Part shown: positions 3,857 to 28,201 of the stretch, piece after piece | How the letters are laid out: the number at the start of each line of letters is the position of its first letter | How positions within the stretch are numbered: the stretch's first letter is position 1 | Source of the DNA: Candidatus Omnitrophota bacterium | Lineage (GTDB): Bacteria > Omnitrophota > Gorgyraeia > Duberdicusellales > 4484-171 | DNA length: 64,000 nucleotides | Assembly (NCBI GenBank): GCA_016935525.1 | Contig: JAFGQU010000023.1 | Span: 64,897-128,896 of the forward strand | Direction of reading: 5' to 3' | Position numbers and translations under genes: made by a program | The notes under the pieces: model-generated | Database searches by the model: none | What the model was told of the DNA's origin: nothing | The model's input: the letters and a program-made list of their open reading frames with translations, nothing else

Positions 3857-3868
3857 GATATTCCTCCT

Positions 3869-6037: not shown

Positions 6038-6039
6038 GT

Positions 6040-8506: not shown

Positions 8507-8520
8507 TTATCCTCCTTATA

Positions 8521-8538: not shown

Positions 8539-8582
8539 ACTTAATTAAAGCATACCATATATGTAATATATGTCAATAAATT

Positions 8583-8600
8583 TTGTTATTTTTTTCACAT
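8583..8600. promoter_or_regulatory. Putative second Rex operator TTGTTAT-TTTT-TTCACAT
   Basis: It has the same 7-4-7 architecture as the site at 8521 and lies about 60 bp from it, upstream of rex. Confidence 0.4.
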
Positions 8601-8681
8601 AAAATAACACCTATTGCTCCCCCGTCGGTTATGGTACAATAGAATCAATAAAAACCTTTAATTTTAAAGGAGTTTCCAAAT

Positions 8682-9944: not shown

Positions 9945-10053
9945 TCTCTGGTCTACGGTCGACAGCATATAGTTTCCAACTCAAAAAAAAAGATTATTTC
10001 TATTCGCTGACCGCTAGCCGCTAAACGCTATTTTACAAAGGGCTATCGACGGT

Positions 10054-10635
10054 TTATTTGGGAATGTTTTTAAGGATCCGAAAATCGTTGGCAAGAACCG
10101 GCTTTTTATTGATATCGTACGTGACTACCGCCGGATGGAATATCGGCATGATCTTTATTTTCCCGTAAGGACTCGTCGTGATGAAAATATTACCGTGAAT
10201 CTTAGTGATTCCCTGGACTTTGGCGGCAAGTCCGAATTTACGCATGATATAGCCGGTTGAAAAATTCCCTAAACAGCAGATGACCTTAGGCTTGATGTAT
10301 TCGATCTGGGCGTCGAGATAAGGAGTACAGAGAGCTATTTCTTCATCGTGAGGGTTCCGGTTATCCGGCGGCCGGCATTTAAGGATATTCCCGATAAAGA
10401 TTTCTTGGCGCGTTAATCCCGCCAGAGCGAGCATCTCATCGAGAACTCCTCCGGCCCGGCCGCAGAAAGGACGGCCTTCTTTATCTTCGGACGCCCCCGG
10501 CGCCTCGCCGATACACATGACTTTTGCCTCCAGGCTCCCTTCGCCCGGGACGGCCTTCGTCCTGGTCTTCCCTAACGGGCACCTCTGGCACTGGCATATC
10601 GTCTGATTGAGTTTTTGAATATATTCAGGGTCCAT
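10054..10635 (-). CDS. Uracil-DNA glycosylase family 4 (4Fe-4S type)
   Basis: GEAPGASEDKEGRPFCGRAGGVLD motif and N-terminal Cys ligands. Confidence 0.8.
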   Translation of the reverse strand: MDPEYIQKLNQTICQCQRCPLGKTRTKAVPGEGSLEAKVMCIGEAPGASEDKEGRPFCGRAGGVLDEMLALAGLTRQEIFIGNILKCRPPDNRNPHDEEIALCTPYLDAQIEYIKPKVICCLGNFSTGYIMRKFGLAAKVQGITKIHGNIFITTSPYGKIKIMPIFHPAVVTYDINKKPVLANDFRILKNIPK

Positions 10636-11702
10636 GGGGATACTCCTCTTCGGTTTCTTTATAATTCACTTTTGCTTCCAGGTCGCGCAGTTGTTTCGCG
10701 ATATCTTCGAATTCGCTTTTATAGGTCTTTCTTTGTTTCAACGAGTACCCTAAATAGAGGGTTAACGGGAATACTACAAACAGGCCGCCGGTAAGTATCT
10801 GTCCCGGGTATTCTGGAAAAATAAAAAAGGAAACGATAAATAACAGCCAGCACACGACATCAGTAATCCCCGTATACAGAAGGGCCCGGGGAGTACCGCT
10901 GATGATCCGTTTGCCGGCGATGAACAGGAACGGGGCCGGGAAAAATGCGGTCGTATATGTACGCGCCAGATAAATAGTAAGCCCGCAGGCTTCCCCCAGC
11001 ATATCGCAATATATCACTTTTGCCAGGCCGTAAAAAAAGAAGATACTTCCTACGCTGCCGATCAATATCGCGTATCCTCCGAAAAGGTTACCCCATATAT
11101 CGGGGGCATGGCTTCCTTCCAGATGCCTGAGCAGTTCTTCCTGTTTTTCCTTCTGCTTTTTCATGAACAAATGGATAGAATCGCCCGATATGTCCGAAAG
11201 GGTATCTTTCTTTTTCAAAAATTCGTCTAATATTTTTTGAGAACCATATATATATTTTAACAACCATCGTACGGCAAAAAAGAGCAGTACATACCAGGAA
11301 ACATTTCTTAAAAGGTATCCCAGATATATGATTGCTCTCTCGTATACCGTGCGCTCGGGATATCGCCCGAACGCATAGATATGGATTATGGCTAACACGA
11401 TGAAAACCGCAAGCAGTATCGTCTTTACAAACTTGTTGAAGGTAAGCCCGAAAGAAGCTCTCTCCAGAATACCTAACCCGGCGATCAAGAAAAACGGCCC
11501 CGGTAAAAAAAGGATAATCGCCGCGCATACGAACTTTTGCGTACATTCGCTGCCGGGCGAGAAGATCATCGCGCCCAGAGTGGTAAACAAGCCGTAACTA
11601 AAGAAAATCGTCCCGGCTGTGCCAATGATCACCTCTATCGTACCGGCGACCTTAAGTAATAACGGAGGAGATCCCTGGGTATTATGTGAAGGAGTGTTCA
11701 TG
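10625..11702 (-). CDS. Polytopic membrane protein of unknown function with an internal tandem duplication of a module of about 3 TM helices
   Basis: The two halves are alike: GTAGTIFFSYGLFTTLGAMIFSPGSECTQ...FLPGPFFLIAGLGILE versus GSVGSIFFFYGLAKVIYCDMLGEACGL...FFPAPFLFIAGKRIIS. The likely start MNTPSHN at 11702 overlaps the treY stop (ATGA). Confidence 0.5.
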
Positions 11703-14526
11703 GTCCAGTATTGATCAATACCGCAGCCGGAAAATGGGCACACAGATCTGCGACCAAAAGGGATTTCTCCGTCAGTCGGTCTTGGTGAGTGATGCAATCG
11801 GATAATGTCCCTTCGATCCCTTCCGGTAAAAAGACCGCGGTATCATCCCATATATTTGCCCCTAACGGCCAGGCGTCCGGGCCGACAAGACGGGTAGTAA
11901 ACCGGCTCGTCACGATAATCGCCCATTGCCCTTGATGTTTCCGGGCAAAAGCCACGATACATTCTTTATATTTACCTTCGGCCCGTAACGGAATATATTC
12001 GCCTTTTTCAAAAAGGTCAGGAAACCGGCGCCTTCGATTCAGGAGTTGATAGATAAGAAATAACTTTATTTTGCCGGTTGACGCCTCTTGCCTTAATCGG
12101 CCGATAAGACTATGGATATCTTCTTTAATCCCTTTTTCTATCTCATGTAAATACTGTATCCTTTTTGAAAAATCGACCGGCCGGCGGTTATCGGGATCGA
12201 CCAGGCTTAATTCCCATAATTCCGACCCCTGATAGAAGTCGCAGACGCCGGGCGCGGCCATCTTTATCGTGACTTGAGCGAGAGAATTCAACACGCCATA
12301 GTGAGCGATGACTTTATGAAACCTTAAAAAAGAAGGTAAAAACTGGTTCGCTTCATTATCTTCAAGAAGCGCATCGATAAAATTGAGGCATACCTCTTCA
12401 TATCCTTCATCGGGTTTTACCCAGGCGCTATGCACTTTCGCTTCTCTTACCGCTTTGATGATATACTCTTTTATCCGGCGCGAATAGCCGGCGATCTCCT
12501 CTGCCTCACAAGGGTAAGACCCTAACAGTGTCTGATAAATAAAATACTCATCGTTGGCGTCCGGCATATATTCACCGTCTATTTTGCGTTTTTTGGAACG
12601 GTTTATCTTACTCCAGGCATGCAGGTACCCTTTCCATTCGGTAAAGAGTTCGGATAATACGTTTATCCGGGCCCGTACGTCTTCGCCGCGTTTGGTATCA
12701 TGCGTGGCGGTCGCGTTCATCGAATGAAGCATATGTGTGCTGCGCCATTTGTTGAATTCATGAAATTCGCTTAACATGGTCCCGGCACTGTTCGGTTCGC
12801 CGCCGACTTCGTTAAGCGAGATCAATTTATGGTACGTATAAAACGTGGTATCTTCGAATCCTTTAGCCATGATCGGCGAAGTCATCTGCTGGAACCGCAT
12901 AATAAAATGCCAGAAATCCCGTTTTTCCTCGTCGGTCAACGAATCGATCAGCCTTAAAAGCAAAAAGTTCTCGATAAAGTTAAGTTCATATTCCAAAGCC
13001 GGGGCGCTCAAACGCGCTTTCTCGATCGCTTTTTTCATGTATACACGGTCTTTTCCTTCAAAATGCTCCTGATCGATATAGGTGCGGTATACCGGAAAAA
13101 AAGTCACTACCTCCACCAACGCCCGTTTCAAACCGTAAAGGGTAATATCCCGGCCGTAGCGGTTACGTCCGGCTACTTTTTTCATAAGATAGGCGAGGTT
13201 ATCGATATCGCCCGCCATATGTTTTCCGATAATAAGCCTTTTTTTCTCACTGACCAGACGTTCGTAAGAAGTATGGAAACCGGTAAATTTATAATATAGT
13301 TTCAGGAGGTTTTTGGCGTTTTTCGGCTGGCAGAATAATCCATTCAACCGGTTCATAAAATCATACCCGGTCGTACCCTGGATATCCCAGGTTTCGGGAA
13401 GATGTTCGCCGGATGCCGATATCTTTTCGACGACCGTATACACATCTTTCGTCTCAGCTTTTAACCGGGCAAGATAGGCGTTGGGATTATACAGGCCGTC
13501 AACATGATCGATACGTAATCCCTGGATCTTATCTTCTTTAATCAACCGCAAAATAAGTCCATGAGTATAATGGAACACGTTTTCTTTCTCTACTCTTAAA
13601 GAGATGATATCGTTCACCGTAAAAAATCTTCGGTAATTCAACTCCTCCGATGCCACTTTCCAGAACGACAAACGAAAACATTGTCTCGATAGCAGTTCAT
13701 CGAGCATCGTAATACTCTCATCGTTCCCGCCGGCGGCGTTGAAGAACGAGAGATTTCCATCGACAAAGGCCTTGATCTCATCATGGGACTGGATAAAATC
13801 CCACAGCAGCTTTTTCGCGTGCCGGATATAATCATATTTTATCTTATCATCATGCAGCGAGACTTCTTTGAAGGTATCGACTAATCCGTAAAATTGAATG
13901 ACCAGCTGATTGTTGGGGCCGATCTTGTTTTTTAGTCTTTCGATATCATGCAAAAAGACATATTCATACGTATTCAATAATAACGGGAACTCTAATTCGT
14001 AATAGATGACCTTTAATCCTGCTTCGCCATAGGCCAGCTGTATTTCCCCGCTCTCTAAGGCTTCGGAATAAAATTTCCCTAAAAACGGAGCCAGTACCCG
14101 GCCTTGAAAACTTTCATAAGGATGGACCCAGTCGATATCAAAAAAATCGTAGAAGCGGGAATGTTCTCTTTGTTCAAACACATCCATCAACATGTAATTT
14201 TCTTTACTATACGCCATATGGTTCGGGACGATATCCTGAAGCCAACTCATCCCTTTCCCGTTCAATACCGCGAAAAGCTCATTAAAAGCGGCCTCACCGC
14301 CGAGTTCGGGATTAATATGGGTAGGGTCGACCACGTCGTAACCGTGAGGGCTCCCCGGACGCGGGGTAAATATGGGTGACGCATAGATATGAGAGACTCC
14401 TAAGGCGTGAAGGTAAGAGACTATTCCTTTCGCCGCGGGAAACGTAAACCCTGAGTTAAATTGAATTCGATAGGTCGCGCTCGGTATACGCATATATTCA
14501 GCCGGTCCGTATCCTAAGATATTCAC
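11698..14526 (-). CDS. treY: Malto-oligosyltrehalose synthase (GH13)
   Basis: The N-terminus ATYRIQFNSGFTF...GVSHIYASPIF..PGSPHGYDVVDP is diagnostic of TreY, and the length (942 aa) fits. Confidence 0.85.
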   Translation of the reverse strand: MNILGYGPAEYMRIPSATYRIQFNSGFTFPAAKGIVSYLHALGVSHIYASPIFTPRPGSPHGYDVVDPTHINPELGGEAAFNELFAVLNGKGMSWLQDIVPNHMAYSKENYMLMDVFEQREHSRFYDFFDIDWVHPYESFQGRVLAPFLGKFYSEALESGEIQLAYGEAGLKVIYYELEFPLLLNTYEYVFLHDIERLKNKIGPNNQLVIQFYGLVDTFKEVSLHDDKIKYDYIRHAKKLLWDFIQSHDEIKAFVDGNLSFFNAAGGNDESITMLDELLSRQCFRLSFWKVASEELNYRRFFTVNDIISLRVEKENVFHYTHGLILRLIKEDKIQGLRIDHVDGLYNPNAYLARLKAETKDVYTVVEKISASGEHLPETWDIQGTTGYDFMNRLNGLFCQPKNAKNLLKLYYKFTGFHTSYERLVSEKKRLIIGKHMAGDIDNLAYLMKKVAGRNRYGRDITLYGLKRALVEVVTFFPVYRTYIDQEHFEGKDRVYMKKAIEKARLSAPALEYELNFIENFLLLRLIDSLTDEEKRDFWHFIMRFQQMTSPIMAKGFEDTTFYTYHKLISLNEVGGEPNSAGTMLSEFHEFNKWRSTHMLHSMNATATHDTKRGEDVRARINVLSELFTEWKGYLHAWSKINRSKKRKIDGEYMPDANDEYFIYQTLLGSYPCEAEEIAGYSRRIKEYIIKAVREAKVHSAWVKPDEGYEEVCLNFIDALLEDNEANQFLPSFLRFHKVIAHYGVLNSLAQVTIKMAAPGVCDFYQGSELWELSLVDPDNRRPVDFSKRIQYLHEIEKGIKEDIHSLIGRLRQEASTGKIKLFLIYQLLNRRRRFPDLFEKGEYIPLRAEGKYKECIVAFARKHQGQWAIIVTSRFTTRLVGPDAWPLGANIWDDTAVFLPEGIEGTLSDCITHQDRLTEKSLLVADLCAHFPAAVLINTGP

Positions 14527-16921
14527 CTAACGGATTAAAAGCGTCTAACCAGCCTTGAGCGGTTTTATCGTTCTGGTCTGCTTTCTCCTGCATCGTTTTG
14601 GCAAAATTCTTCTTTACCGAAAAATAAAGGTTTTGTACTTTCCAGAGGTTGATCGTCAATCCTAAAGGACCGAGCACATCAATCAATGACCGGACGATCT
14701 GCATCGGATAGATCTCCTGCGGAGACTTATAAAACTGTTTCATCAGCGTCTCGATCTTCTGACCTACCCGAAACCCCAAGGTCACCTTATCTACGGTAAG
14801 ATCCCATTCCTGGATATCGGCAATCAATCCTTTAAGCTTGGCGGAATCTAATTCGTCGTTATCGATACAATTCATCAGGTCGATATTGAATGTCGCCGAA
14901 AGCGTGCTGGCCAATATCGTAGGTAAAGGCATATTCAATTGTTTCAGTACCGAAAGTATCGGATAATGCTGGTCACTGATCTGTTTAAGCGAAGATTCGA
15001 TACCGGAGATCGTCGATGCGATGATCTGATAGAGGATCTTGCGTTGTTCGTCTTTAAACAAATGCCATAGAGTATAATGGACGTCGGGGAAAAACTGTTC
15101 GATCATCTTTAATGTCCCGGGGATATCGCCTTTCTCGAAAGACCCGCTGATTTCCTCTTTCATTTTTAAAAAATCTTCATGATCACGGGACGGCAATACT
15201 CCGCCGAAAAAGTTGTGGTCACCCAGATGCAGGACCGCGAAATCCACAGAAGTTTCTTCCTGCGTGATCTTTGAAAATATATCGGCTTTGCCGATGACAA
15301 GTCTGCTTTTACCGGATTCTTTCAGAATATATTCCTGATTCTTCACCGTATAACAATAAAGTGTCGTTACGTCTTGATGCTCGTTGAATAACGAAGATAT
15401 CGCGTAATGGGCGCCGACCCGGTTAAAGTCAAGGATGAACGGTTTCACGAAATATTCATAGGCGTATTTAGCGTTCCCGTACCGGGCGATATTACTGGGC
15501 ACTTTTTCCAGAAGAGTTATGAACGTCTCCTCCAGCGGCGCCCCGATAAGGTCATGGGCAAGCTGGATAGCTCTTGCGGCATAAAGAATGATCTGGACGG
15601 TCTCGATACCGCTCACCTCATCAAAAAACCATCCGCAACTGGTATACATCAGCATCGCCTGACGTTGCATCTCAAGCAGTTTTAGAGTTTTGATGCGTTC
15701 GGCTTTATTCAGTGGCCTGACCTGATGGGCCTTAAAAAACGCATCGATATTTTCCGGCGAACGGTCCAAAATCACGTCAATATACGCGTCACGCGCGCCC
15801 CAGGCATCTTTTACCAATGCCGTCATCTGTTCTTCATAGATATGTGCCAGATTATCGCGTAACCAATCAAGCGCGCCCCTGAGCGGCGCGCGCCACTCCT
15901 GGTTCCACTGGGGATGTCCTCCGGAATTACAACCGCAGTTGTTCCGCCAGCGTTCAATACCATGGATACAACTCCATGAAGAGTTTTCATAAATCTCTAC
16001 TTCAAACTGGGAAGGATGATTTTCAAGATATTCGCTATAAATAGTGATCCGGGCAAAATCATTATTGCGGATATAATCAATACAATAAGCCAGCCCCATA
16101 TCCCCGTCACGATGATGGTGCCCGTAGGTCTCGCCGTCGGTAGCGATATGGACCAACTGGTCTTCTTCGGACGATAAAAACACTCCTAATAACCGGCCGG
16201 CAAAATCTTCGCCTTTAGACAACAACCCTTCAAACGCTACGCCTTGTGAGACCGGGCCGTCATAGAAAAAAAGCGTGATCGCTCGACCGGAAGGTAACGC
16301 GCATTGGTAGGGATGACGCGGGTCTATTTTTGAACCGCTTATATCTTTCCAGCGTTTATCGCCGATCTTGCGCATCCGTTTTGCCTGGCGCGGAGCAAGA
16401 ATAGTAAACTTGATCCCGCAGGAAGCCAGCATATCCAGAGTCTCGATGTCGACCGCGGTCTCAGGCAGCCACATACCTTGAGGTTTCCTTTTAAACCGGT
16501 ATTCAAAATCTTTTATGCCCCATACTATCTGAGTATATTTGTCCCGCGATGTAGCCAGCGGCAGGATCATATGGTTATAACCTTGGGCTAATGCCGATCC
16601 GTGGCCGGAAAAATTTTTCTGGCTCTCTTTATCGGCGGAAAGGAGCGCCTGATACACTTCCGGCTCTTTTTTTGCCATCCAGGAAAGCAGGGTCGGTCCG
16701 AAATTAAAACTGATATTCGAGTAGTTGCTCATGATATCGGTGATCTTACCGCCTTCTCCCAAGATCCGGGCGGTAGAATTCGGCGCGTAACATTCGGCGG
16801 TGACCCGTTCGTTCCAGTCATGGTAAGGGTACGCCGAATCCTGCCGTTCGACTTCTTCTAACCAGGGATTTTCCCGCGGCGGTTGATAAAAATGCCCGTG
16901 AATACAGATATATTTATTCAT
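14498..16921 (-). CDS. Glycoside hydrolase family 57 protein with a long C-terminal (DUF3536-like) domain
   Basis: The N-terminal HGHFYQPPRE motif is the GH57 signature. At 807 aa it matches the GH57-plus-C-terminal-domain architecture. Confidence 0.7.
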   Translation of the reverse strand: MNKYICIHGHFYQPPRENPWLEEVERQDSAYPYHDWNERVTAECYAPNSTARILGEGGKITDIMSNYSNISFNFGPTLLSWMAKKEPEVYQALLSADKESQKNFSGHGSALAQGYNHMILPLATSRDKYTQIVWGIKDFEYRFKRKPQGMWLPETAVDIETLDMLASCGIKFTILAPRQAKRMRKIGDKRWKDISGSKIDPRHPYQCALPSGRAITLFFYDGPVSQGVAFEGLLSKGEDFAGRLLGVFLSSEEDQLVHIATDGETYGHHHRDGDMGLAYCIDYIRNNDFARITIYSEYLENHPSQFEVEIYENSSWSCIHGIERWRNNCGCNSGGHPQWNQEWRAPLRGALDWLRDNLAHIYEEQMTALVKDAWGARDAYIDVILDRSPENIDAFFKAHQVRPLNKAERIKTLKLLEMQRQAMLMYTSCGWFFDEVSGIETVQIILYAARAIQLAHDLIGAPLEETFITLLEKVPSNIARYGNAKYAYEYFVKPFILDFNRVGAHYAISSLFNEHQDVTTLYCYTVKNQEYILKESGKSRLVIGKADIFSKITQEETSVDFAVLHLGDHNFFGGVLPSRDHEDFLKMKEEISGSFEKGDIPGTLKMIEQFFPDVHYTLWHLFKDEQRKILYQIIASTISGIESSLKQISDQHYPILSVLKQLNMPLPTILASTLSATFNIDLMNCIDNDELDSAKLKGLIADIQEWDLTVDKVTLGFRVGQKIETLMKQFYKSPQEIYPMQIVRSLIDVLGPLGLTINLWKVQNLYFSVKKNFAKTMQEKADQNDKTAQGWLDAFNPLGEYLRIRTG

Positions 16922-18747
16922 TTTGAGACCTCGGTTTTATAGACGACGAGACTTAAAGGGTTCATCGTCACATTTCCTCCGGATTCGACCGTTTCCGGCG
17001 ATACCGAACCCGGACCTTGCCACTTTTGATGAGAAGAATCAAGAATACACGTCATCCTTCCGGTTACATTATCGCACGGATATACCTCTTCGTTTGAAGA
17101 AAAATTCATAAGAGTAATCGTTTCACTGCTCTTTGAGTTCCGAATAAGCGCCATTACCTCCGGTGAAGCACAACAGGTTTTAATCCCTTCCCGGCTCGAT
17201 TCAGCAAACGCGGCGACAGTTTTACGTAACCTTATCAGTTCCTGATAAAAAGAAAACATGACCGCGTGTTGACCTCGCGCGACTTCTTCCCATTTCAGTT
17301 TCGATAAGTTAAACGTCGCTTCGCTCTGCGGATCCGGCGGTTCGGCTTGCCAACCGAAAGAAGCGAATTCTTTTTTACGTCCGGTACGTACCGCTTCGAC
17401 TAATTGAGTATCGAGATGGCTGATAAAATAAAGGAAGGGGCTGGATGAGGCGAACTCTTCACCCATAAACAACATCGGGATATAAGGAGAAAGGATCATA
17501 CATCCGGCGGCAAGTTTTAACGCTTCAAAATCCACAAGGTGCCCTATACGCTTCCCTTCGATACGGTTTCCGACCTGATCGTGATTCTGGATAAATACAA
17601 TAAACTTATCCGGGGCGATGTCGCGGGAAGAACTGCCGAAATATTTTTTCCGGCAGCAAGAATAATCCCAAGAATACACAAACCCTTCCCGCTCACATTT
17701 CTCCAACTGTTCGAGTCTTCCGAAATCGGCGTAATAGCCCGCGGATTCTTTAGTAAGTAATGTACGTAACGAATGATGAAAATCATCGAGCCATTGAGCG
17801 TCTATGGCGTAGCCGCCTTTTTCTTTTTCTCGGACTACCCGTACGTCGTTAAGATCACTTTCGGCGATGAGATAACACTTTCTTTTCTGTTTTCGGGAAA
17901 ACTCTTCGACTCTTTCAGCCATCTCTTCTAAGATATGTTTCGCGCCGAAATCGTAAATACCGTGTATCGCGTCAAGCCTGAGGACGTCGATATGGTAATA
18001 CTTAAACCAATACAACGCGTTTTCGATAAAATAATCTCTCACTTTATCGCTCATCGCACTGTCAAAATTCACCGCTTTTCCCCAGGGTGTCCGGTATCGG
18101 TCGGTAAAGTACGGGCCGAAATCAGACAAATAATTCCCCTCCGGTCCCAGATGGTTATAGACCACATCAAGGATCACGGCAAACCCGGCACAATGGGCTT
18201 TATCGATAAACTTCTTGAGATTTTCCGGGCCGCCGTAAGAGTTTTGAACACTGAACGGATAAACCCCGTCATAGCCCCAATTACGCTCACCCGGGAACTG
18301 TGAAACCGGCATGATCTCAATAGTATTGATCCCCAGTTGTTTAAAATGGTCGAATTTACCGAGGATCGCTCCGAATGTGCCTTCGGGAGTAAAGGTTCCT
18401 ACGTGCAATTCATAGATAATCATCTCAGAAACGGCAATCCCTTCCCACCCCTGATCGTTCCAAGAAAAACTATTATGATCGATAATACCCGACGGGTTAT
18501 GGACCCCTTCGGGCTGAAAACTTGATACCGGGTCCGGCCGATCTATCCGGCCGTCGAGTACATACACATACGTACTTTCCGGAGAGATCCCCCCGCTTTG
18601 GGCGTGCCAGTAACCGCGGTCATCTTTTTCCATCGGGATAATACGTTCAGAAGGTGAGATTATTTTGAGAGCGACCGAATCACGCTGGGGAGCCCACACG
18701 CACCACTGACACTGCCCGTTACCTGAATAATGAGCGCCTATTCGCAT
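16918..18747 (-). CDS. treZ: Malto-oligosyltrehalose trehalohydrolase (GH13)
   Basis: N-terminal E-set domain, GH13 catalytic regions (GFAVILDVVYNH, LRLDAIHGIYD) and a length typical of TreZ. Confidence 0.85.
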   Translation of the reverse strand: MRIGAHYSGNGQCQWCVWAPQRDSVALKIISPSERIIPMEKDDRGYWHAQSGGISPESTYVYVLDGRIDRPDPVSSFQPEGVHNPSGIIDHNSFSWNDQGWEGIAVSEMIIYELHVGTFTPEGTFGAILGKFDHFKQLGINTIEIMPVSQFPGERNWGYDGVYPFSVQNSYGGPENLKKFIDKAHCAGFAVILDVVYNHLGPEGNYLSDFGPYFTDRYRTPWGKAVNFDSAMSDKVRDYFIENALYWFKYYHIDVLRLDAIHGIYDFGAKHILEEMAERVEEFSRKQKRKCYLIAESDLNDVRVVREKEKGGYAIDAQWLDDFHHSLRTLLTKESAGYYADFGRLEQLEKCEREGFVYSWDYSCCRKKYFGSSSRDIAPDKFIVFIQNHDQVGNRIEGKRIGHLVDFEALKLAAGCMILSPYIPMLFMGEEFASSSPFLYFISHLDTQLVEAVRTGRKKEFASFGWQAEPPDPQSEATFNLSKLKWEEVARGQHAVMFSFYQELIRLRKTVAAFAESSREGIKTCCASPEVMALIRNSKSSETITLMNFSSNEEVYPCDNVTGRMTCILDSSHQKWQGPGSVSPETVESGGNVTMNPLSLVVYKTEVSK

Positions 18748-20678
18748 GAAGTTTTCGGTTGATACTTGAAAAAAACTGCCGCAAGCGGCGGAACGGTTAT
18801 GGAAAGAGAATAATGCCCGCCAGGCAAAGGTTCAACGGATGATTCCACTCCCCCTAAATTACCCTGGCCACTGCCGCCATATTCTTTCGCGTCACTATTG
18901 AGCATTTCTTTCCAGTATCCTCCGCAGGGAACACGCAGGGTATACCCGGAATGAGGTACGGGAGTAAAATTACATACGACCAGTATCGGCGGACTTTCCG
19001 AGAGCGGCTTACGGATGAAACTCAACACACTGCGTTGCCAGTCATGGCAGTCGATCCACTGGAATCCTTCGTGATGAAAATCATTTTCATACAGTGCCGG
19101 CTCATTTTTATAGAAAGCATTCAGTTCTCTGACCCAGCGCTGCAGGTCCCGGTGCGGGGCATACTCTAACACATACCATTCCAGTTCCTTTTCGTGGTTC
19201 CATTCGGCCCGCTGGCCGAATTCCTGGCCCATAAACATAAGTTTCTTGCCGGGATGGCCGTACATATACCCGTACAGCAGCCGCATATTGGCGAATTTCT
19301 GCCAATCATCTCCGGGCATTTTATTTACCAGGGAACCTTTTCCGTGGACGACTTCATCATGAGAAAAAGGAAGCATAAAATTTTCGGTGAAAGCATACAG
19401 CATACTGAACGTAAGTTCGCCATGATGATGCTTACGGTAAAGCGGATCTTGAGAAAAATACGCCAACGTATCATGCATCCAGCCCATATTCCATTTCATC
19501 CCAAACCCCAGACCTCCATCCGACGTCGGCCGCGATACGAGCGGCCAGGCGGTCGATTCTTCAGCGATCATCTGCACATCGGGATATTTTTCATATACCA
19601 CTTCGTTAAGACGGCGCAGAAAATCTATCGCTTCGATATTTTCCCTGCCGCCATACCGGTTAGGCACCCATTCTCCGTTATTCCGGGAATAATCAAGATA
19701 CAACATCGATGCGACCGCGTCGACTCTTAATCCGTCGATATGATATTTATCAAACCAGAACAACGCGCTGGAAATAAGGAAACTGCGCACTTCGGTACGT
19801 CCATAATTAAAAATATAACTTTTCCAGTCGGGATGGAACCCTTTGCGGCGATCGGCATGTTCATAGAGATGGGTACCGTCGAAATAGACAAGCCCGTGGC
19901 CGTCGGATACGAAATGCGAAGGGACCCAGTCAAAGATCACGCCGAACCCGTTCTCGTGAAGTTTATCGATGAGATACATCAACTCCTGCGGCGTACCATA
20001 GCGGCTCGTTGCCGCGAAATACCCGATGATCTGATATCCCCAGGACCCATAGAACGGATGTTCCATAAGCGGAAGGAATTCCACATGAGTATAGCCCATA
20101 TCTTTTAAATAACGGATAAGTTCAGAGGCCATTTCGCGGTAAGTTAAAGAGCAGTTATGTTCCTCATGACGTTTACGCCAGGACCCGAAATGTATCTCAT
20201 AGATAGAAATCGGCGCTCCGGACGCGTTCTTTTTACGGCGATTCCTCATCCAGCGGGCATCCTGCCACTGGTAATCAAGCCCCCAGACGACCGAAGCCGT
20301 CTGAGGCGGGACTTCTGAAAAAAAAGCAAACGGATCGGTCTTATCGGTACGGTAATCATTGTGCTGTGAAACGATATGATATTTATAGACCTCGCCGGAG
20401 CCGATACCGGGGATAAATCCTTCCCAAATGCCGGAGGCGTCGTCACGGATACTAAGCGGGTGAGCCTGGTCGTTCCATTGGTTAAAATTCCCGATGACAC
20501 TGACCGATTTGGCATTAGGAGCCCACACGGCAAAATACGTACCCGCTATTCCGTCATGAGTGATGAGATGCGCGCCCATCTTGTCATAAAGACGGGCCTG
20601 GTTCCCTTCCCGGAAAAGATACACATCTTCCGGAGAGAATAAACTTACTCCTGACATTACCTGTCCGATCTGAGCCAT
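18738..20678 (-). CDS. glgB: 1,4-alpha-glucan branching enzyme (GH13)
   Basis: Conserved regions GFGVIFDWVPSHF, GLRVDAVASMLY and EESTAWP. Confidence 0.9.
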   Translation of the reverse strand: MAQIGQVMSGVSLFSPEDVYLFREGNQARLYDKMGAHLITHDGIAGTYFAVWAPNAKSVSVIGNFNQWNDQAHPLSIRDDASGIWEGFIPGIGSGEVYKYHIVSQHNDYRTDKTDPFAFFSEVPPQTASVVWGLDYQWQDARWMRNRRKKNASGAPISIYEIHFGSWRKRHEEHNCSLTYREMASELIRYLKDMGYTHVEFLPLMEHPFYGSWGYQIIGYFAATSRYGTPQELMYLIDKLHENGFGVIFDWVPSHFVSDGHGLVYFDGTHLYEHADRRKGFHPDWKSYIFNYGRTEVRSFLISSALFWFDKYHIDGLRVDAVASMLYLDYSRNNGEWVPNRYGGRENIEAIDFLRRLNEVVYEKYPDVQMIAEESTAWPLVSRPTSDGGLGFGMKWNMGWMHDTLAYFSQDPLYRKHHHGELTFSMLYAFTENFMLPFSHDEVVHGKGSLVNKMPGDDWQKFANMRLLYGYMYGHPGKKLMFMGQEFGQRAEWNHEKELEWYVLEYAPHRDLQRWVRELNAFYKNEPALYENDFHHEGFQWIDCHDWQRSVLSFIRKPLSESPPILVVCNFTPVPHSGYTLRVPCGGYWKEMLNSDAKEYGGSGQGNLGGVESSVEPLPGGHYSLSITVPPLAAVFFKYQPKTSCE

Positions 20679-20878: not shown

Positions 20879-21463
20879 CTAGAGACGGATAAGGTAAAGG
20901 ATTCCTTTACGCACAAGCATTACCGCGATTGCCGCTAAAAGAAGGCTGGTGATCTTAGAAAGGACTTTCGCGCCCGAAACACCGATTATTTTGATCAATA
21001 CCCGGGATAACGAAAAAATTATTCCGGCCAAACACACATTTACCGCGACCGACCATAACGTGACCATCACTCCGTATTGGCCGATAAGGATCAACGAAGT
21101 AGTAAGTACCGCCGGCCCGACAATAAGCGGAGTACCCAGGGGGACCGCTCCTAATTCCTGAGAAGGAATGCGGCGTTTTTTTCCGGGAATGACCATATCG
21201 ATGATCGCGATACAAAACAGGACTATTCCTCCGGCGATCATAAAATCACCCATAGTAATACCCAAAAACCCGAATACCGCCTGCCCGATAAACACAAAAC
21301 CGATCGCGACCAGAAGCGCCGTCACTACCGACTGCATGATCACCCGTATCTTTTTTCGGGGATCCAACCCCTGGGTAAGCGAGATGAAAATCGGTAACAC
21401 CCCCACCGCATCGACTGCGACAAAAATCGGGATAAACGCGAGCAAAAACTTTTCAACTGACAT
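20879..21463 (-). CDS. MarC family (UPF0056) integral membrane protein
   Basis: 194 aa, six hydrophobic helices, and the N-terminus FIPIFVAVDAVGVLPIF typical of MarC/YhgN. Confidence 0.75.
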   Translation of the reverse strand: MSVEKFLLAFIPIFVAVDAVGVLPIFISLTQGLDPRKKIRVIMQSVVTALLVAIGFVFIGQAVFGFLGITMGDFMIAGGIVLFCIAIIDMVIPGKKRRIPSQELGAVPLGTPLIVGPAVLTTSLILIGQYGVMVTLWSVAVNVCLAGIIFSLSRVLIKIIGVSGAKVLSKITSLLLAAIAVMLVRKGILYLIRL

Positions 21464-21478
21464 GTAAAATCCTTTCTT

Positions 21479-21639
21479 TATTCGGCCCTATCACGGATCG
21501 CTTTCACTCTCAAAGGATCTACGCTGACGATCTCCAGTAACGCTTCGCATTCGGCGCAATGGAACGTATCGGATGCTTCTAAATCCGATTCCAGATTAAA
21601 CTCTTCCGCGCAGACCGGACATTTTATCTTCGCTATCAT
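21479..21639 (-). CDS. Small 53-aa zinc-ribbon protein resembling LysW/ArgW amino-group carrier proteins. It is absent from the ORF track.
   Basis: Manual reverse-strand translation gives MIAKIKCPVCAEEFNLESDLEASDTFHCAECEALLEIVSVDPLRVKAIRDRAE*. It has a CPxC...CxxC zinc ribbon and an ECEALLEIVSVDPLRV segment closely matching LysW CEDCGAELEVVGLDPLRL, and it ends in a C-terminal Glu. An AGGAGG lies 3 nt before the ATG. Confidence 0.55.
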
Positions 21640-21683
21640 AGGCCTCCTTTATTCGAGAACATTTATTTTTTACCTGCTCTCGG

Positions 21684-22160
21684 TTATATCCCGTGAGTAC
21701 GGATCTTTTTATAAAAAATGACTAAATCGTCACCGGCCCCATAAAAATCCGGGATGATCCCGCTCTGAATAAACCCGCGCTTCCGGTAGAAATCGCAGGC
21801 GATCGCGTATTCTCTGCGGGTAGAAGTCTCAACGCGAATAAGCGCTTCACTCGTACAAGTCAAAATAAACTCTTCCGCCCGCTGCATCATCTTTTTCCCG
21901 AGCCCCTTACCGTGATACTTTTTATCGACGATGAGCCAGTAAATATCCCAGGTAGATCGAGTCATAGGGGTCTGGCCAAAAAGAAGAAAACCGGCGGGCC
22001 CGGAGCCTTGCGGTATTTCTTCATGAATAAGCCGGTAATTCACATCGGGTTTTGCAAAACAATCTTCCAAAAGTTCCCGCAATACCACGCACTCTTCGGG
22101 ATGGAATATACCGGTGCTTCGGGCAATATCTATATATCGTTCGACTGTCGTCTCTACCAT
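21684..22160 (-). CDS. GNAT family N-acetyltransferase
   Basis: 158 aa with an acetyl-CoA binding motif of the form HGKGLGKKMMQRAEEF (Q/RxxGxG/A). Confidence 0.75.
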   Translation of the reverse strand: MVETTVERYIDIARSTGIFHPEECVVLRELLEDCFAKPDVNYRLIHEEIPQGSGPAGFLLFGQTPMTRSTWDIYWLIVDKKYHGKGLGKKMMQRAEEFILTCTSEALIRVETSTRREYAIACDFYRKRGFIQSGIIPDFYGAGDDLVIFYKKIRTHGI

Positions 22161-23221
22161 ATTCTCTTTTTGCGGTAATGACGCAAAGCCATCGCGATCA
22201 ATCTGGTAATAAATTCTTCGTAACGATACCCTTTATGGTATACCTGCCGCAGCAGGCCGCTGTCCCGGTTGATATCGGGATTAGGATTCACATCCAGCAC
22301 AAACAGTTTTTCCCGGCGTTGGCGGATATCGACGCGAAAATATCCCCGTCCTCTCACGAGACCCCCTACCCGCTGGCAGATATCGTATAACTGTTTTTTC
22401 ACCGTTTTAGAGATGATCTCGGTCACCTCCGGCACGATCGCATGGTATTGGACCGAATCGATGTTCCACTTGGCGTCATACGTAAGAAAAGGCGAAAAAT
22501 CCGTATACCGCTCATAATCGATCACCGAAATCCCCAGGACTTCATAGGGGTAGTTTCCCATCATACCTACGTTATATTCTTTTCCGGGAATAAATTCTTC
22601 GATAAGCACCCCTGAAGGAAATTCTGATAATTTTTTTTCGGCTTTTTTTAAAAGTTCCCGGGAACTCCACACCAACGAATCATTATCAATACCTACGCTG
22701 GCGTCTTCGGAGGCGGGTTTTATGAAAAAAGGCGGCTCGATAGTAACCCGGTCAATATCTTCGATATTGCGGATCAAATATCCTTTGGGAACGGAAATCT
22801 CGTTCTCTTCCAACAAAGCCTTCAGAACGGATTTATTCAGACATTTCTCAAGAGTATAGGCTGAATTTCCGGTAAACGGAATATCCATTTTTTCCAACTG
22901 AGCGGCAAATTCGGCTTCTTTTTGCGGTTGGTCACCGAACCCTTCGAATAGATTGAACACACAAAAAGCCTTCATTGCCTCCAACATATCCCTGATGTTT
23001 TGCGGGCCGTAAAAATCCTCTTTACTTACCCTGAGCGTCTCGACAGTATAGTTTCTCGCCCGTAAAGATTCTTCAACCGCATCCCGGCACCGTAACGCAT
23101 CTATGACGTCTCTGCGGGCGACATCATCCTTTGCGATAGCGATGACTATCCGCTTCTCTTTTTTGTTCATATTTTTAGTCAGGAAAAACTTCAGGTATCG
23201 TAAGAAGAACCGGTCTCCCAC
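22154..23221 (-). CDS. ATP-grasp ligase (D-Ala-D-Ala ligase / RimK-LysX-like fold)
   Basis: FFIKPASEDASVGI, VLIEEFIPGKEY and RGYFRVDIRQRREKLFVLDVNPNPDI match ATP-grasp B- and C-domain motifs. The true start may be MNKKEKR near 23170. Confidence 0.7.
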   Translation of the reverse strand: MGDRFFLRYLKFFLTKNMNKKEKRIVIAIAKDDVARRDVIDALRCRDAVEESLRARNYTVETLRVSKEDFYGPQNIRDMLEAMKAFCVFNLFEGFGDQPQKEAEFAAQLEKMDIPFTGNSAYTLEKCLNKSVLKALLEENEISVPKGYLIRNIEDIDRVTIEPPFFIKPASEDASVGIDNDSLVWSSRELLKKAEKKLSEFPSGVLIEEFIPGKEYNVGMMGNYPYEVLGISVIDYERYTDFSPFLTYDAKWNIDSVQYHAIVPEVTEIISKTVKKQLYDICQRVGGLVRGRGYFRVDIRQRREKLFVLDVNPNPDINRDSGLLRQVYHKGYRYEEFITRLIAMALRHYRKKRIW

Positions 23222-25428
23222 CGAAAACCGTACCGCGTAAATGCCGCCTTAAGCAACATCCTTACCAGTTGCCGGTAACTCCCTCCGTGTAAACGGTAAA
23301 GGATAGGCAAATCGCTGTAGAGCGGCGAGAGCCCCGGTAACGGATTGATATCGATGACCTTAGGGACATTATCCTTATCCAGGCGAAAATCGATACGGGC
23401 GATATCGCGTAATTCCAGCGCCGAAAAAGCTTTTAACGCATATTCGACCACCCGGGCCCGGACTTCTTCGGCGATGGCATCCTGCGGGTAATACGCCACG
23501 GCTTTTTGCCATTGCCGTTTATTCTCGATAGAATAAATAAACGGGTCATTACTTGCCTGTCGCGGCCCGATTTTCATCATCCCGATCACACGGGCGTCAT
23601 GGCCGTTACCGCATATTCCGACGGTGATCTCATCGTGAGGCAGAAATTCTTCAATAAGTACCGGCTGGCGGTATTGCGCAAGAAGAGCTGTCCCTTGCAT
23701 TTTTAATTGAGCGAAATCACGCACCAGAGATTTTGAGAAGATCCCTTTAGAAGAGCCCTCCCACCGGGGTTTCATGATAAAGCTCTGATACGTAAGGAAA
23801 ATATTTTCTAACGAATCGATCTCCTCAGGACGGGAAACCATATACATACCGGGAACCGGTATCCGGGCCTGAGACAGAAAGGCGTGAGTCAGGTATTTAT
23901 CCAGGCTCACCCCCAAAGCGATCGGATCCGAACCGGAATAAGGGATCTTGAGCGCTTCTAACATCGCCGGCACCTGCGATTCACGGCTACGGGTATTACC
24001 GATACCTTCGGTAATATTCAGTATGAAATCCGGCCGGTGGGCTTTTATTTTTTCTACGAAGTTTTCCGCCTGCTCGAACAACAGGGTTTTAACCCCGCAG
24101 TGTTCGATCTCTTTTTTTAATTGTTCGATCGTCTCGATCTCGTCATACTCTTCTTCGTCATCATCGACCTTATCGTTTCGCTTCAGGTTAAAGGCGATAC
24201 CCACGGTGTTTACCTTGATCTTTTTCAGCGGCGCGCGGACTTGACGGGAATTTTCGGGATTATAGTAAAAAAATGGTTCCCCTTTATAATTTTCAAGGAC
24301 GATACCCTGCGGAGACGCCGATACCAGGTAGTTCGGCCCTAACGGCACTTTCCCTTTACCGTCGATGCCATCGACGACGAAGGTCGGGATACACATGCCG
24401 CTGGTATATCCGCGTAGATGCTTCAGGATATCTATCCCTTTTTCTACCGACGTACGAAAATGCCAGGTCCCCAGTACCGGGTCGCATTGGAAAAGATAAT
24501 AAGGCCTTACCCGTATCGCCTGAAGCTTCTGACAGAGTTCACGCATTACGTGAGGATCATCGTTTATCCCTTTCAGAAGGACCGACTGGTTACTGAGCGG
24601 GATACCGCACCTCTGCAGTCTCTGACAGGCTTGAGCGGCAGATTCGGTCACCTCGCGCGGATGATTAAACTGTATGTTCACCCATAACTTCTCATATTTT
24701 TTAAGCGTACGGCAAAGGTACTCATCGATCCTTTGCGGAAGTACTACCGGCGCGCGGGTCCCGATACGGATGACTTCTATATGCGGTATTGATGAGACCA
24801 TATCCAGGATATGGTCAAGCCGGGCGGTCGCCAGCGTCAACGGGTCTCCTCCGGATACGATGATCTCTCTGATCTCGGCATGGCTCTTTACATATTCCAG
24901 GGCACCCGCGATATCATGTAACGTCGGCTCGCTCGTTTTTTCCCGCCATAGACGTTTACGCGTACAATGACGGCAATACATGAAGCATCTTCCCGTTACC
25001 AATAATAGCGCCCGGTCCGGATAACGATGCACCAGATACGGATTAGGGGAAGTTTTTTCTTCTCCTAACGGATCGATCGTCTCGTGAGTCTCATCCATGA
25101 GCTCTTCCGGCGCGGGAATACATTGGCGGCGGATGGGATCGGCAGGATCATAATGGGTTTCGATCAAAGAAAAATAATATTGGGTAGTACGCATATGGTA
25201 TACCTGTTCGACTTCTTTTAACCGGGTATACTCCTGGGGGCAGACCATAAGCAGGTCTGCAACGTCATCTATCGATTTAAACGAGTGCCGGGATGCGGCC
25301 TGCCAATTTTTATCCTGTACGACAAGGTCCTTACATCCTCCAGGTTCCTCTTCTGATTTTCGCTCAACGTTCATGGTCACGTCTCCTTTACTTTTTACGA
25401 TCTGTCCGGTCACACGTCTCTTTAACAT
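23191..25428 (-). CDS. Fusion protein: N-terminal KamA-family radical SAM aminomutase (lysine 2,3-aminomutase-like), C-terminal ATP-grasp ligase
   Basis: The first roughly 400 aa contain the radical SAM CFMYCRHCTRKR motif and the PLP/Zn regions of KamA (NPYLVHRYPDRALLLVTGRC...). The C-terminal roughly 330 aa show ATP-grasp motifs (MKPRWEGSSKGI, IEEFLPHDEITVGICGNG, ARIDFRLDKDNVPKVIDINPLPG). The better start is probably MNVERK at 25374, where AAGGAG lies 9 nt upstream. Confidence 0.75.
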   Translation of the reverse strand: MLKRRVTGQIVKSKGDVTMNVERKSEEEPGGCKDLVVQDKNWQAASRHSFKSIDDVADLLMVCPQEYTRLKEVEQVYHMRTTQYYFSLIETHYDPADPIRRQCIPAPEELMDETHETIDPLGEEKTSPNPYLVHRYPDRALLLVTGRCFMYCRHCTRKRLWREKTSEPTLHDIAGALEYVKSHAEIREIIVSGGDPLTLATARLDHILDMVSSIPHIEVIRIGTRAPVVLPQRIDEYLCRTLKKYEKLWVNIQFNHPREVTESAAQACQRLQRCGIPLSNQSVLLKGINDDPHVMRELCQKLQAIRVRPYYLFQCDPVLGTWHFRTSVEKGIDILKHLRGYTSGMCIPTFVVDGIDGKGKVPLGPNYLVSASPQGIVLENYKGEPFFYYNPENSRQVRAPLKKIKVNTVGIAFNLKRNDKVDDDEEEYDEIETIEQLKKEIEHCGVKTLLFEQAENFVEKIKAHRPDFILNITEGIGNTRSRESQVPAMLEALKIPYSGSDPIALGVSLDKYLTHAFLSQARIPVPGMYMVSRPEEIDSLENIFLTYQSFIMKPRWEGSSKGIFSKSLVRDFAQLKMQGTALLAQYRQPVLIEEFLPHDEITVGICGNGHDARVIGMMKIGPRQASNDPFIYSIENKRQWQKAVAYYPQDAIAEEVRARVVEYALKAFSALELRDIARIDFRLDKDNVPKVIDINPLPGLSPLYSDLPILYRLHGGSYRQLVRMLLKAAFTRYGFRWETGSSYDT

Positions 25429-25559
25429 AAAATCACCCCGATAGCTTTTTCGTAAAAAAATCTAAAGAATATTTTCTTTCTATTTTTATTTTGGAAATCA
25501 TTTCACACAACGACGGAGGCTCGTCGCCGGCCGGATGATGTTCATCTTCACTGCCGAGA

Positions 25560-25934
25560 TTATGGATTGGCATTGTGCACCTCATTGGCCGGGGAGGGAC
25601 GTTCATTTTTTATTTTTTCCAACATCACCCGGTCGTTCTGCAGTTGTTCGAATGAGGAAAATTGGGAAAAGAAAAAATCGAGGATCTTTTTCTGTTCGTT
25701 CTCTATATTTTTATGGAGACTGTAATACATACTGTTCCCTTCCCGGCGGTCCGAGACGATTTTAAGTAATCTTAACCGGACCAGATGCCGGGAGATCACC
25801 GGCTGACTGATTCGGAGTATTGCCTGTATTTCTTTTACCATCAGCGGTTCGTTATTCATCAGAAGAAAAACTATTCTTAACCGTGTATCATCGGCCAGAG
25901 TCTTTAAGAATTGCCGGAATGATTTAATATCCAT
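25560..25934 (-). CDS. ArsR/SmtB family transcriptional regulator
   Basis: HTH LADDTRLRIVFLLMNNEPLMVKEIQAILRISQPVISRHL. It sits at the head of the KamA cluster. Confidence 0.8.
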   Translation of the reverse strand: MDIKSFRQFLKTLADDTRLRIVFLLMNNEPLMVKEIQAILRISQPVISRHLVRLRLLKIVSDRREGNSMYYSLHKNIENEQKKILDFFFSQFSSFEQLQNDRVMLEKIKNERPSPANEVHNANP

Positions 25935-28124: not shown

Positions 28125-28201
28125 GGTGGGCGTAGCTCAGTTGGCAGAGCACTTGACTGTGGCTCAAGATGTCGCGGGTTCAAATCCCGTCGCCCACCCC
28201 A
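28125..28201 (+). tRNA. tRNA-His (GTG) with encoded G-1 and CCA
   Basis: Cloverleaf: G-1, acceptor GTGGGCG/CGCCCAC, D-arm GCTC..GAGC, anticodon arm CTTGA-CTGTGGC-TCAAG (anticodon GTG), T-arm GCGGG-TTCAAAT-CCCGT, discriminator C, CCA. Confidence 0.85.

Follow-up and report, generated by a model that had tools for sequence, protein, structure and literature searches.

What is made when a lysine 2,3-aminomutase is covalently joined to an ATP-grasp ligase and encoded together with a second ligase and an N-acetyltransferase is the question raised by a locus of Candidatus Omnitrophota bacterium (GenBank assembly GCA_016935525.1, contig JAFGQU010000023.1). In the 64,000-nucleotide (nt) stretch of this contig that was analysed (positions 64,897 to 128,896 of the forward strand, hereafter the window), six co-directional open reading frames (ORFs) are arranged head-to-tail on the minus strand at positions 20879-25934, coding for an ArsR-type regulator, a KamA::ATP-grasp fusion protein, a second ATP-grasp ligase, a GNAT-family N-acetyltransferase, a LysW-like zinc-ribbon mini-protein and a MarC-type membrane protein. 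An initial annotation regarded this operon as a candidate new pathway, in which a beta-amino acid is ligated to a carrier protein or to another amino acid and then acetylated. The gene set is indeed undescribed in the literature that was searched, and no account was found there of an aminomutase combined with ATP-grasp ligases in such a setting; the operon is, however, no one-off. The real unit is a module of four activities, namely KamA, the ligases G1 (fused type) and G2 (separate type) and the GNAT, which occurs fused or unfused in many phyla. Its enzyme families and type of pathway are known, while the combination is undescribed in the searchable literature, and its product may be a small N-acetylated beta-lysine peptide.

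A four-activity module shared by many phyla

KamA and G1 are encoded in the window as the two halves of a single 745-amino-acid (aa) protein (23191-25428, minus strand), in which the expected Radical_SAM, LAM_C and Dala_Dala_lig_C domains were all recovered above their Pfam gathering scores. The N-terminal half (24229-25428) corresponds to a lysine 2,3-aminomutase dependent on radical S-adenosylmethionine (SAM) and pyridoxal phosphate (PLP) (2A5H, TIGR00238), and the C-terminal half (23191-24216) to the Ddl-type ATP-grasp ligase G1 (Dala_Dala_lig_C, 87 bits). The second Ddl-type ligase, G2 (22154-23170; Dala_Dala_lig_C, 72 bits), and the small GNAT N-acetyltransferase (21684-22160; 158 aa; Pfam Acetyltransf_1/7/10) follow on the same strand. 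A protein from a Candidatus Omnitrophica metagenome-assembled genome (P0001) matches the fusion protein with 100% identity and, because the same architecture is present at full length in approximately 95 database proteins, the fusion is no assembly artefact. These proteins derive from Omnitrophota, Candidatus Magnetoovum, Methanocellales, Woesearchaeota, Thermoplasmatota and Deltaproteobacteria, and in the Omnitrophota, Magnetoovum and Methanocellales neighbourhoods the fusion gene is followed by the ATP-grasp gene and then the GNAT gene.

Species representatives (one genome per species) were scanned and the best 80 loci examined. KamA is encoded beside at least one Ddl-type ligase in 54 of these 80 loci and two ligases are present in 40, of which 27 also encode the GNAT. 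Most comprise separate genes, in several gene orders, and they are distributed across the Nitrospirota, Dehalococcoidia, Anaerolineales, Desulfuromonadales/Geobacteraceae, Desulfobacterales, Lentisphaerae, Planctomycetes, Spirochaetes, Dependentiae and Methanocellales/Methanosarcinales. A search with the sequence of 2R7H, the closest solved relative of the GNAT, further retrieved the four genes from Desulfovibrio-type genomes, where they are unfused and preceded by a sigma-54 activator gene; these were the complete genome of the cultured Desulfovibrio mangrovi (CP104208; L090:4569-10386) and an Oleidesulfovibrio-type contig (L091:2874-8531). The module in D. mangrovi is followed by a 585-aa protein of the GNAT and histone-deacetylase families, which could be a deacetylase for the module product.

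The ways in which the genes are fused or exchanged show how the module is built. G2::GNAT fusions are encoded in loci L007 and L076, a Peptidase_S51::G1::KamA triple fusion (P0069) in L088:6001-8835, and in three loci a Peptidase_S66 gene directly follows KamA::G1 in place of G2 and the GNAT (L093:9394-10075, L094:10245-11162 and L098:4347-5018), an exchange which fits a small, hydrolysable amide product. KamA and G1 are the minimal pair, and G2 and the GNAT are a second, co-travelling pair. The regulators differ by lineage, with ArsR in the window and the sigma-54 activator in Desulfovibrio, as is typical of conditionally expressed accessory metabolism. An all-versus-all BLAST comparison of the ORFs flanking the module loci revealed no family recurring across phyla beyond the synteny of close relatives. 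Public annotations label the proteins as "KamA family radical SAM protein", "D-alanine--D-alanine ligase", "GNAT" and "lysine biosynthesis protein LysW", and no paper on 2R7H or on Dde_3041-3045 was found in the literature search. The "LysW" named in a paper on Desulfovibrio alaskensis G20 was discarded, as it is the name of an unrelated lysine transporter.

KamA also catalyses the first step of lysine fermentation in clostridia, and standalone clostridial kamA genes turned up in the same scan of species representatives. That the aminomutase of the window merely opens such a catabolic route, with the remaining genes as unrelated neighbours, is nevertheless hardly credible, given that KamA is fused to a ligase, that the four genes are syntenic across phyla and that the operon contains no downstream fermentation genes.

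A second arrangement, in which two G1-like Ddl-type ligase genes precede kamA and no GNAT was detected, was observed in Omnitrophota, Planctomycetales and Margulisiibacteriota (L026, L030, L032, L033, L040, L043, L052, L058, L065 and L085; match regions at approximately 8000-11300). By eye, its neighbours resemble housekeeping genes (PurH-, EF-G- and Era-like N-termini), and it may represent a different beta-lysine system.

The aminomutase and its predicted product

The KamA half matches the solved structure of Clostridium subterminale lysine 2,3-aminomutase (2A5H) with an E-value of 1.9e-107, and the SAM and PLP motifs expected by the initial annotation are retained. The cysteines of the CxxxCxxC cluster motif (C148, C152 and C155) align with C125, C129 and C132 of 2A5H, R157 with the carboxylate-binding R134, and K360 with the PLP-binding Lys337, while D316 and D353 occupy the positions of Asp293 and Asp330. 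All of these cluster, arginine, aspartate and PLP-lysine residues are invariant in an alignment of 15 diverse fusion proteins and are kept in 87-88 of the 88 KamA homologues from the fetched loci. The protein scores 300 bits with the KamA-family model TIGR00238 (cut-off 199.2). Its best NCBIfam equivalog is AblA, at 443.9 bits and below the cut-off of 525.4, followed by the glutamate-2,3-aminomutase (405 bits, cut-off 650) and arginine-2,3-aminomutase models (357 bits, cut-off 600).

We take Asp293 and Asp330 of lysine 2,3-aminomutase to bind the epsilon-ammonium group of lysine, and this aspartate pair is presumably replaced in glutamate 2,3-aminomutase. Because the pair is invariant and AblA is the best-scoring aminomutase model, the product of KamA is likely to be beta-lysine rather than beta-glutamate. 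The latter had been entertained as a product by the initial annotation and is unlikely in light of the invariant residues aligning with Asp293 and Asp330; beta-arginine was rejected along with it on the strength of the aspartate pair and the top score of AblA.

Two Ddl-type ligases with altered specificity residues

To characterise the ligases, 69 G1 and 31 G2 sequences were aligned with E. coli DdlB, the reference sequence of which showed the anticipated residue at each of 16 control positions. The Ddl catalytic residues K97, K144, E180, E187, K215, R255, D257, E270 and N272 are kept in both G1 and G2, except for K215 in 13 G1 sequences and the replacement of E270 by Asp in a minority. The ATP-grasp fold and the full catalytic set are thereby shared with Ddl and VanA, but residues at other positions differ. 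Y216 of Ddl is replaced by Arg, Glu or Trp in G1 and by an invariant Trp in G2; L282 by Asp in G1 and Gly in G2; and S150 by Ala or Gly in G2, which also has an invariant Asp at Ddl position 276. Both window ligases match Dala_Dala_lig_C and not RimK in Pfam, and both fall far short of the cut-off of every Ddl family, with scores of 128 (G1) and 105 bits (G2) against 243 for PRK01372. The Protein Data Bank (PDB) matches of G2 are Ddl and VanA, together with weaker, unrelated ATP-grasp enzymes, and LysX, ArgX and RimK are absent from these matches even at E<=10. Of the "Ddl/RimK-like" description in the initial annotation, the Ddl-type part is therefore upheld by Pfam, NCBIfam and PDB comparisons and the LysX/RimK-type part is not. 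Given the replaced specificity residues, the scores below the Ddl cut-offs and the lack of LysX, ArgX or RimK matches, G1 and G2 appear to be active ligases which are neither D-Ala-D-Ala ligases nor LysX. The fusion of G1 to KamA finds a parallel in GshF, where a Ddl-like ligase is likewise joined to the upstream biosynthetic enzyme whose product it would take as substrate. A role in the synthesis of D-Ala-D-Ala for peptidoglycan was rejected on the basis of the changed specificity residues and the occurrence of the module in archaea and Dehalococcoidia.

Cyanophycin synthetase also contains a Ddl-type fold, and acidic protein tails are modified by enzymes of the RimK and TTL types. Two related ligases could work iteratively, and the Peptidase_S51 domain fused to G1 and KamA in P0069 belongs to the cyanophycinase/dipeptidase E family, so that the module could be envisaged to produce oligo- or poly-beta-lysine, a cyanophycin-like store, or a beta-lysylated protein or envelope component. 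We consider such a polymeric or macromolecular product very unlikely: no Mur-ligase-like or polymerase-type partner accompanies the module, the archaeal and Dehalococcoidia hosts argue against a role in peptidoglycan, and a small GNAT as capping enzyme is better suited to a defined small product.

An additional 327-aa ATP-grasp protein is encoded directly after the GNAT in L001 (10829-11812). It displays weak similarity to the RimK/LysX family (40 bits with LysX_arch, cut-off 276) and has no counterpart in the window.

The GNAT and its orphan structural relative

The closest solved relative of the GNAT is 2R7H (E 1.4e-18), which is annotated as a "putative D-alanine N-acetyltransferase". A protein of the four-gene module in the Oleidesulfovibrio-type contig L091 (P0123) is 99% identical to 2R7H; this orphan structure is the GNAT of the Desulfovibrio-type module, and more than 1,700 proteins match the 2R7H-type GNAT at E<=1e-10. 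No AblB-named NCBIfam family occurs among the matches of the window GNAT at E<=0.1. Weak matches were instead obtained with streptothricin acetyltransferases (Sat2/Sat3, E ~1e-3 in NCBIfam; PDB 3PP9, E 4e-4), enzymes which reportedly acetylate the beta-lysine moiety of streptothricin.

These matches raise the alternative that the module produces a bioactive metabolite, a cationic beta-lysine peptide acting as antibiotic or signal, with the GNAT providing self-protection and MarC export. Antibiotic dipeptides are made by ATP-grasp L-amino-acid ligases, among which BL00235 is weakly matched by G2 in the PDB; a membrane protein gene also ends the operon in the window. MarC is, however, present at only three loci, and further genes for tailoring, resistance or export did not recur in the flanking-ORF comparison. 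The module is widespread by vertical descent among free-living anaerobes and archaea, and its GNAT is an obligate partner of G2, to the point of being fused to it, which argues for a biosynthetic rather than a resistance role. A bioactive product thus seems distinctly unlikely.

The LysW-like mini-protein

The remaining small gene of the operon (21478-21639, minus strand) codes for a 53-aa mini-protein with a C7-x2-C10 and C28-x2-C31 zinc ribbon, which matches PF21344 at 36.5 bits (cut-off 27) and the solved LysW structures 3WWL (E 1.6e-5) and 5K2M (E 1.3e-4), and falls below the LysW equivalogs TIGR01206 (31.4 bits, cut-off 53.2) and NF041070 (21.6 bits, cut-off 75). Its assignment to the LysW/ArgW family consequently holds for the zinc-ribbon domain, but not with respect to equivalog scores, tail or partner genes. 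A single close relative was found by direct search, while a profile search of 1.84 billion representatives yielded 442 relatives at E<=1e-3, the best-scoring of which combine the zinc ribbon with a long poly-acidic tail that is interspersed with Tyr, Phe or Trp and varies in length and last residue. The window copy ends in VKAIRDRAE, which is not acidic. Among 98 small family members the C-terminal residue is Glu in 19, Tyr in 16, Lys in nine, Asn in eight, Asp in seven, Phe in seven and others in the remainder, and only five have the LysW-type end [DE][WFY]G[DE]. Approximately two of 17 locus-linked mini-proteins end in Glu and the others in D, F, N, Q, S, R, Y, A or I, so that the conserved C-terminal Glu on which the carrier proposal had drawn is not a feature of the linked homologues. 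Tandem copies of the gene are present in L095:408-909, L096:755-1256 and L097:8808-9198. Since the first copy in L097 (51 aa) lacks a tail like that of the window, the tail-less form is a recurrent variant and not just a truncation artefact.

The genomic contexts of the mini-proteins were obtained from neighbourhood look-ups and from a metagenome scan with a six-sequence alignment. The gene was rightly expected to be conserved in related genomes, and at least 11 Omnitrophota-type loci do link it to KamA-ligase genes. The usual order in these is ArsR, one or two mini-proteins, a secreted protein, and then KamA (fused or unfused) with its ligase (L001, L006/L100, L086, L093-L099, L102 and L103), and in L093 the mini-protein gene is located five genes away from the ligase gene. 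The secreted protein always follows the mini-protein and comprises a signal peptide, a small domain and an acidic/aromatic tail in approximately 110-200 aa (L001:6489-6866, L006:7553-7930, L086:3052-3393, L092:2139-2474, L093:1072-1401 and L094:7673-8017, and also L095-L098 and L102-L104). The six copies compared share 31-53% identity and the family has no match in Pfam or NCBIfam; a tblastn search showed it to be absent from the window. Beyond the Omnitrophota-type contigs, a profile of four mini-proteins had no match in the other ~80 loci, and a LysW-like ORF is present in one of the 54 KamA-ligase loci of the species representatives. The mini-protein is therefore confined to Omnitrophota-type contigs, as a lineage-specific extra and not a proven carrier. 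Because dozens of lineages possess the four enzymes without a LysW-like ORF, a carrier cannot be intrinsic to the enzyme chemistry. The carrier element, the source of the exceptional look of the operon, is weakly supported.

A carrier might still operate within the Omnitrophota, where the mini-protein would be loaded covalently on a tail carboxylate with lysine or beta-lysine, which G2 and the GNAT would elaborate and a peptidase release, in a manner comparable to LysW/LysX/LysK or the PEARL scaffold peptides. The zinc ribbon is truly LysW-like, most copies have the long poly-acidic tail, the linkage to KamA-ligase genes recurs, the peptidase following the ligase in L093, L094 and L098 is of a carboxypeptidase family (S66), and L001 supplies a ligase with some likeness to RimK/LysX. 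Set against these points are the variable C-terminus, the missing acidic tail in the window and in one L097 copy, the occurrence of the same enzymes in many phyla without the mini-protein, and the Ddl type of the window ligases. The KamA half also keeps the carboxylate-binding arginine and the aspartate pair with its presumed epsilon-ammonium role, and would thus need free lysine, and a Pfam scan of the operon and of 36 more large window ORFs detected no LysX, LysZ, LysY, LysJ or LysK domain. Finally, DUF5752, TreT, ArsR, mini-protein and secreted protein are encoded in L104 (403-3490), followed by two-component and phosphate-transport-like genes and with neither KamA nor ligase, showing that the ArsR/mini-protein/secreted protein trio can exist without beta-lysine genes. 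We hold a covalent carrier to be unlikely on this balance; the mini-protein, which usually accompanies ArsR and the secreted protein at the start of osmolyte-type gene clusters, is more likely a regulatory or adaptor partner.

The Omnitrophota trio of ArsR, acid-tailed LysW-like zinc ribbon and secreted acid-tailed protein constitutes a second, separate puzzle. As a speculative solution with a slim prospect of being correct, the zinc-ribbon proteins might serve as a scaffold whose acidic, aromatic-studded tails are reversibly beta-lysylated by the fused ligase and trimmed by the S66 carboxypeptidase, thereby coupling the sensing of ionic strength or the storage of beta-lysine to control by the cysteine-less ArsR protein and to the secreted partner. 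Such a scaffold would be a bacterial analogue of tubulin-tail/RimK-type ligation or of LysW-type carrier chemistry.

Two more distant members of the mini-protein family, found in unrelated contexts (L106:9001-9405 and L107:1316-1513), combine the LysW-like zinc ribbon with a fused, Cys-rich C-terminal domain (134 aa).

Proposed function and comparison with known pathways

We see about an even chance that the product is a small, cytoplasmic, N-acetylated peptide containing beta-lysine, which would act as compatible solute or stress protectant. The solute or protectant role is proposed because of the osmolyte-related neighbours, the AblA-like aminomutase and the combination of GNAT and ATP-grasp enzymes that also underlies the synthesis of N-acetylglutaminylglutamine amide (NAGGN) and N-acetyl-aspartyl-glutamate. 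The KamA half would convert free L-lysine to beta-lysine, as its conserved catalytic and substrate residues suggest. G1, judging by its ATP-grasp fold and its fusion to KamA, would join beta-lysine to a partner amino acid at the expense of ATP, and the Asp at Ddl position 282 may hold the second ammonium group of beta-lysine. Strict co-occurrence and the G2::GNAT fusions point to G2 and the GNAT as the enzymes that may add and N-acetylate a further residue or amine. MarC/NAAT may move the product or a precursor across the membrane, the ArsR-family protein would control transcription, and the S66 and S51 peptidases may turn the product over.

In its mode of action the locus would come closest to an AblA/AblB or NAGGN-type osmolyte pathway in extended form. 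AblA and AblB, which make N-epsilon-acetyl-beta-lysine as a compatible solute in methanogens and some bacteria, likewise pair a lysine 2,3-aminomutase with a GNAT, and AblA is the top equivalog of the KamA half. The classical operon is linked to an MscS-type gene, as are the loci L093 and L094; in Candidatus Methanoperedens the kamA-ablB osmolyte operon has an MscS-type gene upstream, is induced by salt and contains an ablB gene of 870 bp, coding for approximately 289 aa (PMC11337218). The window differs in that two ATP-grasp ligases are interposed between KamA and the GNAT, one of them fused to the aminomutase, in that the KamA half misses the AblA equivalog cut-off (444 against 525 bits), and in that its GNAT is much shorter than AblB (158 against ~289 aa) and matches no AblB-named model.

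In the synthesis of NAGGN, Ngg is a bifunctional GNAT and ATP-grasp enzyme, while NAT8L and RIMKLA make N-acetyl-aspartyl-glutamate. Both routes resemble the module in their logic, in that acetylation is combined with ATP-grasp ligation to give a small N-acetyl peptide, and the G2::GNAT fusions in L007 and L076 recall the bifunctional NAGGN enzyme. The window ligases are, however, Ddl-type and not RimK-type, a radical SAM mutase supplies the beta-amino acid, and the module lacks an amidotransferase partner. LysW/ArgW systems, including the carriers of Streptomyces secondary metabolism, share the CxxC...CxxC zinc ribbon and, in most members of the mini-protein family, the acidic tail. The window mini-protein differs from these in being tail-less and without the conserved EDWGE/C-terminal Glu; it is accompanied by neither a LysX-type ligase nor a kinase, reductase, aminotransferase or M20 peptidase partner, and mini-protein genes are found with a regulator and a secreted protein. 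A standard LysW lysine or arginine pathway was thus rejected, the zinc ribbon being the only defining feature present. By defining features the locus is accordingly distinct from Ddl, AblA/AblB and the LysW pathway, the last two as the initial annotation had anticipated.

Several observations weigh against the solute peptide. The osmolyte view derives from the neighbourhood in one phylum, most loci outside the Omnitrophota have no recurrent flanking family, and many hosts stem from freshwater, peat or groundwater. The similarity of the GNAT to streptothricin acetyltransferases would equally fit a bioactive beta-lysine compound with self-protection, and the model offers no mechanistic account of the tight linkage between the mini-protein and the KamA-ligase genes in the Omnitrophota.

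Confirmation of a new beta-lysine solute or peptide would bring a further class of metabolite into the stress physiology of a great many cultured and uncultured anaerobes, among them Omnitrophota, Dehalococcoidia, Nitrospirota, Desulfovibrio and relatives of Geobacter and of methanogens. Functions would be assigned to the large orphan GNAT family that includes 2R7H and to two branches of D-Ala-D-Ala ligases that are likewise orphans, and the annotations "D-alanine--D-alanine ligase" and "lysine biosynthesis protein LysW" would be corrected. Because the unfused module is found in cultured Desulfovibrio, the question is directly open to experiment, and a transposon mutant library of D. alaskensis G20 exists (PMC4045070).

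Operon layout

The six-gene, co-directional set described by the initial annotation is present, on the minus strand and with each ORF above the Pfam gathering score for its domain. Its genes were confirmed, although MarC (20879-21463) falls outside the interval of 21479-25934 given for the operon, and the start of G2 has been revised. The G2 ORF extends to a GTG at 23221 (355 aa), but the ATG at 23170 (338 aa) is the more likely start, because the orthologues are 336-337 aa long. Depending on this start, the fusion and G2 genes either overlap or are separated by approximately 20 nt. G2 and the GNAT gene overlap by 7 nt, and gaps of 44 and 14 nt separate the GNAT from the mini-protein gene and the latter from MarC. 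A Shine-Dalgarno sequence (AAGGAGG) is located 4 nt 5' of the ATG of the mini-protein gene. Upstream of the ArsR gene, a sigma-70-like promoter candidate (TTGACA-18-TATACT; 26007-25978, minus strand), identified by consensus match only, agrees with the consensus at 11 of 12 positions and lies just 3' of a strong terminator (26160-26131) which ends the upstream flagellin gene. The tight spacing, the promoter-like site and the flagellin terminator fit a single transcription unit from ArsR to MarC. Neither a riboswitch nor another known RNA was detected above threshold in the 131-nt gap between the ArsR and fusion genes or in the rest of the 18-30 kb region, where the RNA search returned one tRNA (28126-28198) and a chance-level PrrB/RsmZ match within coding sequence.

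Regulator, membrane protein and genomic surroundings

The first gene of the operon codes for a 124-aa winged-helix regulator of the ArsR/SmtB family (25560-25934, minus strand; Pfam HTH_5, 42 bits; NCBIfam HTH_metalloreg, 74 bits, cut-off 55). Its translation contains no cysteine and hence no thiolate metal site, so that it is an ArsR protein by fold only and not a classical metal sensor. Its signal might, as a matter of speculation, be supplied by a partner protein. Orthologues head the corresponding loci L001, L006, L086, L092, L093, L095-L100, L104 and L105.

The last gene codes for a six-helix membrane protein of the MarC/NAAT family (194 aa, minus strand), with scores of 113.4 bits for PF01914 (cut-off 23.9) and 98.2 bits for TIGR00427 NAAT, marginally under the cut-off of 99.2. 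In two loci from Dehalococcoidia (L050 and L051) the GNAT gene is likewise followed by a MarC gene.

A 200-nt gap after MarC separates the operon from a set of trehalose-from-glycogen genes (11698-20678, minus strand) coding for GlgB (646 aa; 985 bits, cut-off 741), TreZ (609 aa; TIGR02402, 718 bits, cut-off 539), GH57/DUF3536 (807 aa) and TreY (942 aa; TIGR02401, 903 bits, cut-off 499), the stops and starts of which overlap. This set is probably a separate unit. Related functions are encoded near the module in other Omnitrophota-type loci, with TreT and DUF5752 in L001 (together with a nucleotidyltransferase) and L104, MscS, HAD, GH65 and GT4 genes between the mini-protein unit and the fusion gene in L093, a trehalase-like GH15 and MscS in L094, and CorA with a TrkA_C channel-like protein in L097. 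The recurrence of trehalose, MscS and channel genes supports a stress or osmolyte setting for these loci.

Elsewhere in the window, genes for the HydF maturase, an [FeFe]-hydrogenase large subunit with N-terminal ferredoxin domains, a NuoF-like flavoprotein, a Cache/HAMP histidine kinase and a Rex-like regulator (CoA_binding and Put_DNA-bind_N) at 325-8506 (minus strand) look like an electron-bifurcating-type hydrogenase cluster. The tRNA gene at 28126-28198 is on the plus strand (Rfam, 69.6 bits), and a heat-shock block coding for HrcA, GrpE, DnaK and DnaJ, together with ClpB, is located at 48930-56956 on the minus strand.

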